Shown here: in pieces, positions 20,052 to 64,000 of the stretch
Layout of the letters: every line of letters begins with the position of its first letter
Position numbering within the stretch: the stretch's first letter is position 1
Assembly: GCA_903825255.1 (NCBI GenBank)
Contig: CAIJZZ010000030.1
Coordinates: 20,956-84,955, forward strand
DNA: 64,000 nt
Reading direction: 5' to 3'
Source of the DNA: an uncultured bacterium
GTDB lineage: Bacteria; Patescibacteriota; Minisyncoccia; Phycocordibacterales; UBA9973
Program-made: the position numbers and the translations under genes
Notes under the pieces: generated by a model
What the model was told of the DNA's origin: nothing
Database searches by the model: none
The model's input: the letters and a program-made list of their open reading frames with translations, nothing else

Positions 20052-22301
20052 ATGGATTTACCCCAAATACCTTTAAACAAAGATTTGACTTACATCGGAC
20101 TCACGACTTTTCGTGATAAAAATACTCTTTTCGGTATCAAGCGCAAAGATAGGCGTCAGCACGTATATTTACTTGGAAAGTCAGGTACTGGTAAATCAGT
20201 GTTGATGTTTAATATGGTTATTCAAAATATTATCAACGGTGAAGGTGTTTGCGTAGTTGATCCTCATGGAGAATTAGTCGAGGGAATTTTATCGGCTATA
20301 CCACCAAATCGTTTGAAGGATGTAGTATATTTTAATCCAGCTGATATTGATTATCATATTGGTTTTAATGTTTTGGAATTAATTGATCCACAATATAAAC
20401 ATTTGGTCGCCTCAGGACTCATGGGTATTTTTACGAAAATTTGGGCGAATGCTTGGAGTGCTCGTATGGAATACATTTTAAACAATGCGATTTTGGCATT
20501 ACTAGATACTCCTGGAACAACCTTGCTTGGAATTCCTCGAATGCTCGTGGACAAAGATTATCGTCAGAAAATAATTTCAAATTTAAAAGATCCAGTGATC
20601 AAGGCTTTTTGGGTGCATGAATATGAAGCTTGGCAAGATAAGTTTCGTAATGAAGCCATCGCCCCGATTCAAAATAAAGTCGGACAATTTCTTTCAACTT
20701 CCATTATTCGAAATGTTGTTGGTCAGTCAAAAAGTACGATAGATATTTTTGAAATTATGAACAGTGGAAAAATTTTTCTTGTAAACGTTTCAAAAGGGCG
20801 TATTGGTGAAGACAACTCTGCATTACTCGGAGGGATGATCATCACCAAAATTCAATTAGCAGCGATGGAACGTGTACGTATTCCTGAAGATGACCGTAAA
20901 GATTTTTATTTATATGTCGACGAATTCCAAAATTTCGTAACAGAATCTTTTGCTGGTATTTTATCTGAAGCTCGAAAATATCGTTTGAATCTTACAGTGG
21001 CGCACCAGTACACAGCCCAACTCGTTTCAGACAAAAGTTCAGCTGTGCGAGATGCAGTTTTTGGCAACGTCGGGACGATGATTGTTTTTCGAGTCGGCTC
21101 AGATGACGCAGAATTTTTAGAAAAAGAATTTGATCCAGAATTCACTCCATCGGACATTGTGAATTTACCAAACTATAAAATTTATCTAAAACTAATGATT
21201 GATGGGGTTACTTCAAGACCATTTTCTGCAAAGACGTTACCGCAGATGGTAAAATCAGGTAATATAGAAATCGAGCAAGAAGTTATTAAATCATCCCGTG
21301 CCCTTTATTGTAGATCCAGAGAAGATGTTGAACGTGAAATCAATAATTGGAGCGGAATGTCGCTTGGAGATGATATTACTAGTGCTGGTGATGTCGAAAT
21401 GTTTGCGGCAATTTGTTCTATTTGTCATAAAGAGACAAAGGTGCCATTTAAACCACAACCAGATAGACCAGTGTATTGTAAAGATTGTATTGCTAAAATG
21501 AAGACAGGAGAGTTGAAACCTCTTCGAGGCTCAATGAATCAAATTAAAGAAGATGAAATTAAATTTTTTAAACCATTAGCAGATTTGGGTATTGAATTTG
21601 AACCAAAAGAGAAACACACTGAGTCTGAAAGATATCCAGAAAGAACAAATGAAAATAAGCCGATTATGAGTAGTAATAAACCAAAAATTTTTGGAGCTCT
21701 TAAAAAAGTTTTTACCCCGTCACTCGCGAGCAACAGGGTTACACCATCATCTGCAAACAATACAGCTAATAAAAATATTCCACCTATAAATCCACAGCCG
21801 ATAAATAGGCCGAATCCTGTTTATGTAAAAAATGATTTTAAAAATCAAAATCAAAAATCAACTTTTGTAAATAAGGAAAAAACTAGAGACAACTCAGCCT
21901 TGCGAGATATTTTAAATAAGACTCTTTCTGAAAATAAAGTTTTTGAAGTCAAAAAGGAAGAACCAAAAATGGAAGAAATTAAAAAAGAGACTCCTCCACC
22001 GATCTCCTTGAGCGATTTAAAAGTTCAAAAACCAGCTAATATTTCAAATTTAAAGGATCGAGGAGCAAGTGTTGAAGATATGAGTAAATTAAAGAATTTA
22101 ATTTCAGAAACAAAAATTCCTATACCTGAACCTACTAAAGAAACTCCTGTTTTTGTTCCTGAGCCCATAAAAGAAATTCCAAAAGAAGAACCTAAAGAAG
22201 AAATAAAAAAAGAAGAAAAATCTGTTCCCATTCCTTCAGTTTCACCGTCTGGAAAGGTACGCGAAGTACCAGAAGATGTTTTAAGAAAAATTTTAGAATA
22301 A
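20052..22301 (+). CDS. TraD/VirD4/HerA-like P-loop ATPase with a CxxC-x17-CxxC domain and a low-complexity tail
   Basis: Walker A GKSGTGKS, DPHGE, Walker B LYVDEFQNF, EARKY; CSIC-x17-CKDC; P/E/K-rich C-terminus. Confidence 0.85.
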   Translation: MDLPQIPLNKDLTYIGLTTFRDKNTLFGIKRKDRRQHVYLLGKSGTGKSVLMFNMVIQNIINGEGVCVVDPHGELVEGILSAIPPNRLKDVVYFNPADIDYHIGFNVLELIDPQYKHLVASGLMGIFTKIWANAWSARMEYILNNAILALLDTPGTTLLGIPRMLVDKDYRQKIISNLKDPVIKAFWVHEYEAWQDKFRNEAIAPIQNKVGQFLSTSIIRNVVGQSKSTIDIFEIMNSGKIFLVNVSKGRIGEDNSALLGGMIITKIQLAAMERVRIPEDDRKDFYLYVDEFQNFVTESFAGILSEARKYRLNLTVAHQYTAQLVSDKSSAVRDAVFGNVGTMIVFRVGSDDAEFLEKEFDPEFTPSDIVNLPNYKIYLKLMIDGVTSRPFSAKTLPQMVKSGNIEIEQEVIKSSRALYCRSREDVEREINNWSGMSLGDDITSAGDVEMFAAICSICHKETKVPFKPQPDRPVYCKDCIAKMKTGELKPLRGSMNQIKEDEIKFFKPLADLGIEFEPKEKHTESERYPERTNENKPIMSSNKPKIFGALKKVFTPSLASNRVTPSSANNTANKNIPPINPQPINRPNPVYVKNDFKNQNQKSTFVNKEKTRDNSALRDILNKTLSENKVFEVKKEEPKMEEIKKETPPPISLSDLKVQKPANISNLKDRGASVEDMSKLKNLISETKIPIPEPTKETPVFVPEPIKEIPKEEPKEEIKKEEKSVPIPSVSPSGKVREVPEDVLRKILE
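21714..21739. repeat. Short palindromic element in the ATPase tail
   Basis: ACCCCGTCACTCGCGAGCAACAGGG, 22/25 identical to the reverse complement of 29341-29365. Confidence 0.7.
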
Positions 22302-61446: not shown

Positions 61447-63147
61447 TTATTGTTTAAAATATTCTGGCGTATTTGTCGACATCCAATCTATCAATTGTCG
61501 CATAACAAAAGGTGCACCTACTCCGTTTGTGGATGGGCCAGCCTCCATCATTATAATGAAAGAATATTTAGGATTTTGATAGGGAAAAAATCCCATAATC
61601 CAAGAGTTAACTTTATTTTTTGACACACCGAGCTGAGCCGTACCAGTTTTTGAGGCCATTTGCACATAAGGAACATTAATAGCAATAGAAGTACCACTTG
61701 TGACACTACCTCGCATTCCTTGATGAATTATATCAAAATAATTTTTACTTAAATTAACATTCGAAACTTTAGCTTCAGCCACTTTATCATTTAAAATAAA
61801 ATGTGGAGTTACTAATTTACCATAGTTGGCAAGTGCTCCAGCTGCTCGGACCATTTGAAGTGGCGTCACTTGAAAACCATATTGGCCAATGGCAGTGTGG
61901 TAAGTATCTCCAATACGCCATGGATCTCCTGGAAAATTTTTCTCTTTCCATTCTGGACTTGGTATAGTACCAGCTACTTCATCTGGTAGATCGACACCTG
62001 TTTTTGTACCAATATCAAAAAGTTTTGCATATTTTTCAAGATTTGCTATACCCAAACCTTTTTGATCTTGATAGCCTCCTCCGATTTCATAAAAATAAAC
62101 GTCACAAGAGACAGTGATTGCTTGAATCATATCTACCCAGCCATTGACTCGCCAGTCTTTGAAAACAGTTTTTTTAGTAGGATCATATGGATTAGGAATA
62201 GAAATTGAGCCAGTGGATAGAATTTTTTTTGTGGGATCAATCACGCCTTCGTTTAGTGCACCGAGGGCAAAGAAAGGTTTGACGATTGAACCCGGAGTAT
62301 AAAGCCCAGATAGAGTTCTGTCCATAAATATTTTTCGACTATCATTAAAATAATTTTTAATAGTTGTAGCATCTTTACCGTCAGATAAAATATTTGAATC
62401 ATATTCAGGATAACTTACGGAAGTTATTATTTCTCCAGTATTTACGTCCATTATTATTCCAGCACCACCTTTAAAAGAATAAGTGTTGGAAATTTTTTTA
62501 ATCTGATTAAATAATTGTGTTTGAATACGGGAATCAAGTGTGGTAACTAAGTCAGTACCTCTTTTTGGAATATTAGTTGTATTTTCAGATTGGATTTTTT
62601 TATGGGCATCAATCTCAACAATCTTCATTCCATTTATACCTTTTAATTGATCATTGTATTGTTTTTCTAGGCCATCTTTGCCTATAAATTCACTTTGCCA
62701 ATAATTTCCAGATTTATCTTGTTTAGGATAACTTATATACCCTAGTACATGTGAAAAACCATTTAATAAATAAGTACGAATTGGAAAACCGTCTACTATA
62801 TCACCTTTTTTATTCCAAACAAGTTCTTTTTTGTTTCGATCATAGATTATTCCCCTATCAGCAAAAATTATTTGTTTTTGAAGAGTATTATTCTGACTTT
62901 TTGTAAAATAGGCTTCTCCTTTTTGTATTTGCAAGTATCCAAGTCTGGCTGAAAAAGTTAATATAAAGAATAAAAAAGAAATACCTAAAAATAAAATTGT
63001 TCTTTTGGAAATAGGTTTTTCGATTCTGCCTTCGAATTGTTGAGTATCAAAATTTTCTAAATTTTTTGAATCCAAAAAAATCTCGTCTGCTTCTACAAAA
63101 AAGTTGGCATTTTTTATTTTATTTTTTCTTAATATTTTTTTAAACAT
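61447..63147 (-). CDS. mrdA: Class B penicillin-binding protein 2
   Basis: RG.IYDR, PGSIVKP (SxxK), SCD (SxN position), KTGTAQ. Confidence 0.88.
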   Translation of the reverse strand: MFKKILRKNKIKNANFFVEADEIFLDSKNLENFDTQQFEGRIEKPISKRTILFLGISFLFFILTFSARLGYLQIQKGEAYFTKSQNNTLQKQIIFADRGIIYDRNKKELVWNKKGDIVDGFPIRTYLLNGFSHVLGYISYPKQDKSGNYWQSEFIGKDGLEKQYNDQLKGINGMKIVEIDAHKKIQSENTTNIPKRGTDLVTTLDSRIQTQLFNQIKKISNTYSFKGGAGIIMDVNTGEIITSVSYPEYDSNILSDGKDATTIKNYFNDSRKIFMDRTLSGLYTPGSIVKPFFALGALNEGVIDPTKKILSTGSISIPNPYDPTKKTVFKDWRVNGWVDMIQAITVSCDVYFYEIGGGYQDQKGLGIANLEKYAKLFDIGTKTGVDLPDEVAGTIPSPEWKEKNFPGDPWRIGDTYHTAIGQYGFQVTPLQMVRAAGALANYGKLVTPHFILNDKVAEAKVSNVNLSKNYFDIIHQGMRGSVTSGTSIAINVPYVQMASKTGTAQLGVSKNKVNSWIMGFFPYQNPKYSFIIMMEAGPSTNGVGAPFVMRQLIDWMSTNTPEYFKQ

Positions 63148-63160
63148 TTAATACTTGAAT

Positions 63161-63433
63161 TTATTTATTATTTGCATAAAATTTTAATTTCTTCTTAATC
63201 AATTCTAGCGCAATTAACACTAAAATAGAAGCAAGAAAGTAAATAAAAAATATATTGAAAAATCTAGCCTCTTTTACTCCATAAAGCAGATCTGTTAAAA
63301 GGAATATGATGACTGCTTCCCAAAAAATAGAAAAAATTACCATACCGATTAAAGCTAAAATTATTGATATCCAAAAAGGCATAAACAGTATAGAAAATAA
63401 CAATATTATTGTGAATAAAATTCTTTTTACCAT
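63161..63433 (-). CDS. Small multi-TM protein upstream of pbp2 (MreD-like position)
   Basis: Highly hydrophobic 90 aa protein; directly upstream of mrdA. Confidence 0.6.
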   Translation of the reverse strand: MVKRILFTIILLFSILFMPFWISIILALIGMVIFSIFWEAVIIFLLTDLLYGVKEARFFNIFFIYFLASILVLIALELIKKKLKFYANNK

Positions 63434-63571
63434 AAATTTATCTTACACCTTTTATTTTAAATTTGTTCTTTACAAAATAACATTCTTATGTTAGTATATT
63501 AAACAGAAATAGTGCGTATTTTGTTATTTAAAAAATAATTTTAGTTAATAATAACTTTAAATTTATATACA

Positions 63572-64000
63572 ATGAGACAATTAAAAATTACAAAAAAAAT
63601 TACTAGTAGAGAAATCGCTAGTTTGGACAATTACCTTCAGGATATTGGTAAAATCGATTTAATCACTGCAGAAGAAGAGGTTGTTTTGGCTCAGAGAATT
63701 AAACAAGGCGACAAGGAGGCTTTGGATAAACTAACTAAAGCCAATCTAAGATTCGTGGTATCTGTTGCAAAACAGTATCAAAATCAAGGTTTAACACTAC
63801 CAGACCTAATCAATGAAGGAAATCTTGGGCTTATCAAGGCGGCACAACGTTTTGATGAAACCAGAGGTTTCAAATTCATATCCTATGCAGTTTGGTGGAT
63901 ACGTCAATCAATTCTACAAGGTATTGCAGAAAGTTCAAGGATTGTGAGATTACCCTTAAATAAAGTAGGCTCCTTGAATAAAATAACAAAAGAAACCAAT
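63572..64000 (+). CDS. RNA polymerase sigma-70 factor, Bacteroidota-type (3' truncated by the window; not in the ORF track)
   Basis: Manual translation [36 protein letters not shown]...[60 protein letters not shown]. Confidence 0.92.

Follow-up and report, generated by a model that had tools for sequence, protein, structure and literature searches.

Why does a Parcubacteria chromosome carry an extra, Bacteroidota-like primary sigma factor gene, where did this gene come from, and what could its product do next to the organism's own RpoD? These questions are raised by P0001, a gene that begins close to the end of the 64,000-nucleotide stretch of DNA analyzed here (the window), which corresponds to C30:20956-84955, i.e., positions 20956 to 84955 of contig C30, in the source genome, G000. 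An earlier account made from the letters of the window (here called the sequence-only reading) had drawn attention to an open reading frame that starts with MRQLKITK at position 63572. It took the frame for a Bacteroidota-type primary sigma factor, acquired from a Bacteroidota host and serving either as an alternative sigma factor or as an effector. The frame was confirmed, with every quoted peptide present, and occupies the following part of the window.

63572..64000, + strand: P0001, short sigma-70 gene, codons 1 to 143 of 288; ATG at 63572, running past the window end

P0001 proved to be a genuine and intact sigma gene, of the type found in the FCB group (Bacteroidota, Ignavibacteriota, and Chlorobiota), that reached the Parcubacteria chromosome by horizontal transfer. 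The sigma family is a known one, to which P0001 adds a member from an unexpected place. With a probability of roughly 0.65, we read its product as an accessory sigma factor that is made under RpoD control and uses the cell's own core enzyme.

The full P0001 frame (C30:84527-85393; positions 1501 to 2367 of L001 and L005) comprises 288 codons, and its end would correspond to window position 64438. Pfam models for sigma-70 regions 1.2 (Sigma70_r1_2, residues 17 to 49), 2 (r2, residues 56 to 122), 3 (r3, residues 135 to 201), and 4 (r4, residues 223 to 274) all matched above their cutoffs, each with an E value between 4e-14 and 2e-17. No Sigma70 r1_1 was detected in P0001 by Pfam search, and just 16 residues precede region 1.2; the suspected lack of region 1.1 was thereby confirmed, and the native RpoD does have this region. 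Among the NCBIfam models, no equivalog model matched P0001 at its cutoff, and the best partial matches were to the RpoD and RpoS models. With a GC content of 34%, and 25% at third codon positions (GC3), the gene resembles its surroundings (C30, 32% GC).

The nearest relatives of P0001 were primary sigma factors of another phylum. In a collection of 5.8 billion proteins, the best matches were 287-amino-acid primary sigma factors with 66 to 68% identity at 100% coverage, the named ones being from Bacteroidales, Bacteroidetes, or Chlorobi. A species-level survey (one genome per species) returned at least 600 candidate stretches, at least 599 of which encode a P0001 relative; the best 80 were inspected. 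Seventy-three of these 80 belonged to Bacteroidota (Flavobacteriales, 38; Cytophagales, 18; others) and showed 63 to 66% identity to P0001, while the remaining 7 comprised 6 bins named for other phyla (contigs of 4 to 27 kb) and 1 unclassified bin. In the six bins, named for Syntrophothermus, Erythrobacter, Dinoroseobacter, Bifidobacterium, Akkermansia, and Polynucleobacter, the Bacteroidota-type sigma A genes (L049, L086, L100, L118, L122, and L127) probably represent contamination of public genomes during binning. One of 10 clusters of short-sigma representatives carried a name (Chitinophagaceae/Taibaiella). Since Bacteroidota sigma A proteins are 69 to 100% identical among themselves (median, 78%), P0001, at 63 to 66% identity to them, lies just outside the Bacteroidota range. 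The C-terminal half of P0001 alone gave a best match of 53% identity, with sigma factors of Ignavibacteria, Kapaibacteria, and Chlorobiota as near as those of Bacteroidales, and the family is therefore best called FCB type.

The same affinity was evident at the level of single residues. Conservation was judged against an alignment of 73 named Bacteroidota sigma A proteins, in which 168 columns reach at least 97% conservation; P0001 keeps 146 of them, and the native RpoD keeps 90. The Bacteroidota consensus and the native RpoD disagree at 78 of these columns, where P0001 follows the former 63 times, the latter once, and neither 14 times. P0001 retains region 2.1-2.2, which binds core enzyme, the region 2.3 aromatic residues that serve in melting, and the region 4.2 helix TRERVRQI, as well as the Bacteroidota-type motifs SILQ (region 2.4) and LPLNK (region 3.0), where ordinary RpoD has AITR and IPVHM. 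Region 2.4 of P0001 reads QGIAESSR versus QALAEQSR in at least 97% of the 73 Bacteroidota proteins (A117G, L118I, and Q121S), i.e., the difference that the sequence-only reading had pointed out is real. Its view that the signatures of the frame are typical of the Bacteroidota housekeeping sigma likewise held: by matches, residues, and phylogeny (see below), P0001 is a short FCB/Bacteroidota-type sigma A. A search against the sequences of solved structures returned no Bacteroidota sigma A, and its best hits were the SigA chains 8x6f, 7ckq, and 7l7b.

P0001 is present in addition to a canonical primary sigma factor. The G000 assembly (980 kb in 78 contigs; estimated completeness, 95.95%; estimated contamination, 6.34%) contains, directly downstream of dnaG on contig C60, a native rpoD gene whose 410-amino-acid product (P0003) includes region 1.1 and is 42% identical to P0001. 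A separate native rpoD elsewhere in the genome had been expected, and with this canonical dnaG-rpoD present, P0001 is not the housekeeping sigma factor of its organism. The native RpoD is 91 to 95% identical to proteins named Candidatus Paceibacterota, Nomurabacteria, Parcubacteria group, or Patescibacteria, so the genome had rightly been called Parcubacteria-like. The sequencing runs listed for it are 4 DNA runs from one lake-water study, with no RNA run among them. A long RpoD-type match (38 to 44% identical to P0001) was found in 40 of the 40 relatives searched.

G000 further encodes a second short sigma factor outside the window, P0002 (289 amino acids; G000:C35:20353-21222; L002 1501-2370). 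Within the N-terminal 143 residues, P0002 and P0001 are 77% identical, compared with 54 to 55% overall; of the 168 Bacteroidota-conserved columns, P0002 has kept 133. Its region 4.2 recognition helix is rewritten (from TRERVRQI to SENSVKGR), and its region 4 barely reaches the Pfam cutoff. Contig C35 also carries the genes for SerRS, TopA, RelA/SpoT, and ParB; since each of these is single copy in G000, C35 belongs to the same organism and not to a co-binned strain. On the minus strand of C35, a divergent sigma-like protein of 339 amino acids is encoded (G000:C35:4639-5658; L004 781-1797), for which the RpoD_Cterm model matched positions 3 to 237 with 95 bits, and Pfam recognized region 4 only. 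This protein matched P0001 at an E value of 8e-20, far better than the region-4 proteins of ∼350 amino acids in nearly all 40 relatives (∼1e-6 to 1e-10), and for this reason it may be another accessory sigma factor of G000. A 342-amino-acid protein encoded on C30 outside the window (G000:C30:16335-17363; L048 1480-2508) combines an N-terminal sigma-70 region 4 with a C-terminal HARE-HTH domain; region-4-only frames akin to it in size (343 to 372 amino acids) occur in nearly all 40 relatives.

The genomic context identified P0001 as a single-gene insertion between two neighboring chromosomal genes. C30 is the longest contig of the assembly (89,289 bp), and P0001 lies 4 kb inside it. To the left, genes for FtsW, MurG, GltX, an M23 peptidase, L27, L9, CtpA, and PBP2 form a conserved Parcubacteria core block, with PBP2 orthologues in 9 of 10 same-genus genomes searched (63 to 75% identity). 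The genes next to the insertion are as follows.

61447..63147, − strand: PBP2-type transpeptidase, core block ending at the insertion (synteny, orthologues)
63161..63433, − strand: 90-amino-acid membrane-protein gene, left flank of the insertion (orthologues in G019 and G017)
C30:85438-86319, outside the window: 293-amino-acid membrane-protein gene, right flank (orthologues in G019 and G017)

In the two relatives G019 and G017, the orthologues of the left and right flanks are only 36 to 37 bp apart, with no sigma gene between them, and the right side of P0001 also matches orthologues of the neighbors' neighbors in both genomes. A single gene inserted into conserved Parcubacteria synteny excludes a chimeric join for practical purposes; the earlier concern that the junction might be chimeric was not borne out.

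Short sigma genes of this kind were rare and scattered. In a search of 201 genomes of the genus, G000 included, 8 had matches at an E value of ≤1e-70. One of these (G137) was RpoD type, with a 363-amino-acid frame that groups with the long RpoDs, leaving 7 of 201 genomes with a short copy, again counting G000. Within a phylum sample of 401 genomes including G000, 23 matched, and a short copy was present in G000 and G363 only (1 of the 400 others); the other 21 matches were frames of 359 to 533 amino acids with 41 to 45% identity to P0001. Firm carriers of short copies are G000 (two copies), G019, G136, G169, and G171. The copies in G209 have 52 to 56% GC, that in G198 lies on a contig of 2.3 kb (41% GC), and the contig in G363 measures 2.4 kb; the high GC content in G209 and the tiny contig in G198 make these two genomes doubtful carriers. 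In G209, two short sigma genes stand in tandem (G209:C3:34839-36710; L019 and L021) in a genus that otherwise has ∼30 to 35% GC, and their tree neighbors are Chitinophagaceae; this contig is probably misbinned. The loci of the short copies all differ: in G019 the gene lies by trxB/ftsZ, in G136 between a LysRS-like gene and mraZ, in G169 by fusA, and in G171 among small unknown genes. For every Parcubacteria copy, Bacteroidota sigma A proteins are closer (63 to 66% identity for P0001) than the remaining Parcubacteria copies are (54 to 64%). In full-text searches of the literature (gene tables in supplements not covered), we found no description of such sigma factors in the candidate phyla radiation (CPR)/Patescibacteria.

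Four trees were computed: two quick LG+G4 trees of 134 and 119 rows (the latter with 73 phage sequences), a careful LG+C20 tree of 50 rows with posterior mean site frequencies (PMSF), and a quick PMSF tree of 48 rows that included Ignavibacteriota, Kapaibacteria, and Chlorobiota. The careful tree omitted G137, the fragment from G198, and the majority of both the phage sequences and the representatives without a name. It did contain the two copies from G209 and nine phage rows with long branches, all of which were dropped from the 48-row tree. The split between short sigma factors and Parcubacteria RpoDs received maximal support in all four trees (100/100 in the careful tree). As had been anticipated for a sigma70 phylogeny, P0001 thus grouped with Bacteroidota sigma factors, away from the vertically inherited RpoDs of Parcubacteria. 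Within the short sigma family, the backbone was a star, in which cellular FCB branches were very short and phage and Parcubacteria branches long (end branches of 0.46 for P0001, 0.76 for P0002, and 0.01 to 0.13 for Bacteroidota). No supported sister of P0001, cellular or phage, appeared in the trees of 119, 50, and 48 rows. In the careful tree, P0002 grouped with the phage sequences L133 and L154 (97/91) and the G363 copy with the phage sequence L130 (96/85), while 0% of the bootstrap trees united the Parcubacteria copies in one clade. By the approximately unbiased (AU) test, sisterhood of P0001 and P0002 was not rejected (the constrained tree was 1.46 log-likelihood units better; p-AU, 0.525), and neither was a single clade of the seven low-GC Parcubacteria copies (35.8 units lower; p-AU, 0.076). 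Since both constraints stood, one to several acquisitions are possible.

A predicted promoter and a further motif match lie upstream of the start codon of P0001.

63469..63497, + strand: predicted sigma-70-type promoter of P0001 (consensus scan); TTTACA, 17 nucleotides, TAGTAT, with TG before the second hexamer (extended −10)
63458..63465, + strand: TAAATTTG, match to the Bacteroidota −7 consensus TAnnTTTG (motif scan), 114 nucleotides before the start codon

The consensus scan yielded 7 promoter-like sites around P0001 versus 5.4 expected, a weak signal when taken alone. Directly after the stop codon, a hairpin with a T-run forms a terminator (3 terminator-like sites versus 0.4 expected), and P0002 likewise has a sigma-70-type promoter-like site and a terminator hairpin after its stop codon. 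No TTTG was found at −33 spacing from TAAATTTG, which is probably a chance match. TAnnTTTG was also considered as a sign of autoregulation by short sigma factors and rejected: the motif lies upstream of 3 of the 7 Parcubacteria short-sigma genes, and 2 of these 3 matches abut a TTGACA box. Motifs were then counted on the forward and reverse strands of 430 upstream regions of G000 (54 kb). TGnTATAAT, the extended −10 form, was strongly biased to the coding direction (46 times forward and 12 times reverse), and TTGACA occurred 45 and 24 times, so that the use of TTGACA/TATAAT promoters that had been noted for the window holds genome-wide. In Bacteroidota control loci, the same count gave 62 forward and 30 reverse matches for TAnnTTTG, and 1 and 2 for TGnTATAAT.

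Taken together, these observations are best explained by the following scenario. Most likely, P0001 is a xenologue whose source was the short FCB-group sigma A that lacks region 1.1; it entered a Paceibacteria/Nomurabacteria-like Parcubacteria lineage by horizontal transfer and subsequently took on the base composition of the genome. The native RpoD holoenzyme would transcribe the gene from its extended −10 promoter; the product, if it binds the organism's own core RNA polymerase as we assume, would compete with RpoD for this enzyme and direct it to a small set of promoters as an accessory (group-2-like) sigma factor. We hold with high confidence that the gene was transferred from an FCB lineage or its phages. 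The alternative-sigma role that the sequence-only reading had offered as one option is the most economical one, P0001 being extra to the native rpoD. From its proposal of an acquisition from a Bacteroidota host, the transfer of an FCB-type sigma is supported and the host as its source is not: no link to a host turned up, the trees assign the donor no place in the FCB radiation, and phages of Bacteroidota with the same sigma type are equally possible donors.

Several results weigh against an active accessory sigma factor of this origin. Nothing above ∼68% identity to P0001 exists in the 5.8-billion-protein collection, i.e., the gene is known from one genome. The conserved Bacteroidota motif SGRHVSMDAP in region 3.2 is for the most part replaced and reads SKKSVSLSSL in P0001 (G177K, R178K, H179S, D183S, A184S, and P185L), which could reflect adaptation or relaxed constraint. 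Finally, the suggested genome scan for TAnnTTTG promoters was negative: the motif is barely strand biased in G000 (52 forward and 42 reverse matches), 7 of the 52 forward matches read TAnnTTTGAC and overlap a TTGAC box, and no candidate regulon emerged. Given the classical promoter grammar of G000, the regulon of P0001 would be small if the protein still reads −7/−33 promoters, or else its specificity has drifted.

An alternative we regard as possible, if unlikely, is that the immediate donor was a phage. P0001 would then be a phage-type sigma A homologue, either stranded in the chromosome or delivered by a phage of Parcubacteria or Bacteroidota, and it may serve, or may once have served, phage gene expression and not a cellular regulon. 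At least 595 stretches in IMG/VR encode full-length short sigma factors of the P0001 type; the best 80 of them (L129 to L208) are 42 to 60% identical to P0001, and many start with MRQLKIT. Two of these loci, L133 and L154, have clear phage neighbors (genes for exonuclease VIII, a primase/helicase, and an endolysin-domain tail protein) beside the sigma gene. In the upstream regions of the 80 loci, TAnnTTTG occurred 75 times forward and 33 times reverse, and TGnTATAAT was absent from both strands (0 and 0). This Bacteroidota-like bias indicates that the promoters of these phages follow Bacteroidota grammar and that the phages encode a copy of the host-type primary sigma factor; such phages are a plausible transfer vehicle. 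The grouping of P0002 and of the G363 copy with phage sequences points in the same direction. However, no phage clade was supported as sister of P0001, and the unrejected sisterhood of P0001 and P0002 means that the phage link of the latter may be a long-branch effect. P0001 also keeps 87% of the conserved columns versus a median of 62% (range, 52 to 89%) in 73 phage copies. A phage or prophage setting was not found: the insertion is a single gene between conserved chromosomal genes, and no phage gene adjoins P0001 because nothing lies between it and these flanking genes. Among GenBank phages, the best match to P0001 had 45% identity, i.e., no close phage donor is on record. Region 3.2 (the sigma finger) had been considered as a marker of the core enzyme served; its SGRH motif is lost in Parcubacteria copies, and since phage copies keep it in only 12 to 27% of cases, the marker was discarded as nondiscriminating.

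More speculatively, the genus may have repeatedly captured FCB or phage primary sigma factors that still read −7/−33 promoters, which would let the cell express DNA of a Bacteroidota partner that its own RpoD cannot read. We consider this doubtful; if true, the sigma factor would help the cell to use foreign genes and, at the same time, would point to its host.

P0001 could instead be a gene without function that was stranded recently and is now decaying, as might be suspected from its restriction to G000, the high turnover implied by a different locus in each genome, and the lack of a detectable regulon in the G000 motif counts. The state of the gene renders this improbable. Its 288-codon frame is intact in a genome of 32% GC, and its composition is fully ameliorated, which needs long residence. 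Furthermore, the 146 of 168 conserved columns that it keeps include the core-binding and DNA-binding helices, and the gene has its own promoter-like site and terminator.

Descent from an old sigma paralogue of Patescibacteria, inherited vertically and mostly lost, with the likeness to Bacteroidota due to shared ancestry or convergence, is very improbable. Such a history would account for the single clade of seven low-GC copies that the AU test did not formally reject, and L118I/M and the loss of the SGRH motif are common to several Parcubacteria copies. The SGRH losses occur in phage copies too, though, and are therefore not a shared derived mark of the Parcubacteria copies. A paralogue of this kind is also at odds with the presence of a short copy in just 7 of 201 genomes of the genus and 1 of 400 others in the phylum, with a different locus in every genome examined and a C30 site that is empty in two relatives, and with trees in which bootstrap replicates never united copies that are each closer to Bacteroidota sigma A than to one another.

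The second role proposed earlier, an effector, would have P0001 exported to a Bacteroidota host, where it would compete with the host's sigma A and redirect the host RNA polymerase. Many Patescibacteria live attached to host bacteria, P0001 retains most Bacteroidota-conserved sigma A residues, and G000 shows no general use of Bacteroidota-type promoters. We nevertheless give this idea very little credence: the N terminus of P0001, as read from its sequence, lacks a signal-like hydrophobic stretch, the extended −10 promoter is of the organism's own type, no secretion-system genes are adjacent, and no host is known for the organism. P0002, moreover, is without the region 4.2 recognition helix. 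The replaced Bacteroidota region 3.2 motif of P0001 counts only weakly here, as phage copies lose the motif too.

A chimeric assembly or misbinned Bacteroidota fragment, to which the contamination estimate of 6.34%, the Bacteroidota sigma A genes on 4- to 27-kb contigs in bins of other phyla (e.g., Syntrophothermus, Bifidobacterium, and Akkermansia), and the suspect copies in G209, G198, and G363 (the latter two on contigs of 2.3 to 2.4 kb) might point, can be dismissed, since P0001 lies 4 kb inside an 89-kb contig with Parcubacteria genes on both sides, matches the genome in GC and GC3, and at only 63 to 68% identity to any Bacteroidota sequence cannot come from a stray Bacteroidota read set, while P0002 shares its contig with four single-copy genes and clean relatives carry their copies on long contigs (274 kb in G019) or, in G136, on the PBP2 contig.

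Some further features were observed around P0001 and on C35. A 21-nucleotide direct repeat with 81% identity brackets the sigma gene (L005 1354-1374, i.e., window positions 63425 to 63445, and L005 2420-2440) and could be an insertion remnant or a chance match; it was discounted as a target-site duplication, because so weak a repeat carries little weight in AT-rich DNA. The second gene downstream of P0001, past the window, encodes a CDF cation-efflux transporter (G000:C30:86277-87284; L212 884-1891). This transporter was not found in 5 same-genus genomes, and G017 has a different gene, of 269 amino acids, at that position; the stretch to the right of the sigma gene is thus a variable spot. The transporter was rejected as a second Bacteroidota-derived gene, with its nearest Atlas clusters being commonest in Planctomycetota, Bdellovibrionota, and Myxococcota. 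A 275-amino-acid protein with an N-terminal P-loop-like motif is encoded in two copies that are 75% identical (G000:C35:10123-10950 and C52:3226-4077). It was the sole duplicate seen on C35 and may belong to the contamination estimated at 6%.

Primary-type sigma factors belong to the core of information processing, and transfers of them between phyla are, to our knowledge, rare. Intact, compositionally adapted copies in clean Parcubacteria contigs suggest that genes have flowed repeatedly into these ultrasmall bacteria from the FCB group or from phages of that group. As far as we know, almost no Parcubacteria have a known host, so such sigma transfers are a possible lead to their partners. In addition, the rewritten region 4.2 of P0002 and the hundreds of phage copies constitute a natural variant series of an unusual sigma type.

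Among known systems, the closest counterpart of P0001 is the sigma A of Bacteroidota and the FCB group. In the passages of PMC12632263 and PMC9723704 that deal with it, this sigma factor is described as lacking region 1.1 and as reading −33/−7 (TAnnTTTG) promoters unlike those of other bacteria. PMC12632263, where it treats these proteins, names the missing acidic N-terminal region 1.1 as a feature of Bacteroidota sigma A, and it cites Vingadassalom et al. (2005, 2007) on sigma A-Bfr, the Bacteroides fragilis representative of this type. P0001 shares with this type its size (∼287 amino acids), the lack of an acidic region 1.1, the MRQLKIT N terminus, and 63 to 68% identity over the full length. 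In contrast, P0001 is not the organism's primary sigma factor, its regions 2.4 and 3.2 are changed, and its genome shows no general use of TAnnTTTG promoters. Group 2 sigma-70 factors, which are primary-like and nonessential, include RpoS and the SigB-type proteins of cyanobacteria and actinobacteria and are paralogues of their own RpoD. Like these, P0001 coexists with a group 1 sigma factor, has regions 1.2 to 4 but no region 1.1, and is presumed to compete for the same core enzyme; unlike them, it is a xenologue from the primary sigma lineage of another phylum, with 42% identity to the native RpoD. Phage sigma-70 homologues (PHROG 351; as in PMC9429907) belong to the same short family as P0001, have the same length, and often share the MRQLKIT start, at 42 to 60% identity. 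P0001 differs from them in standing outside a phage context and in having kept more Bacteroidota-conserved columns than most of them (87% versus a median of 62%).

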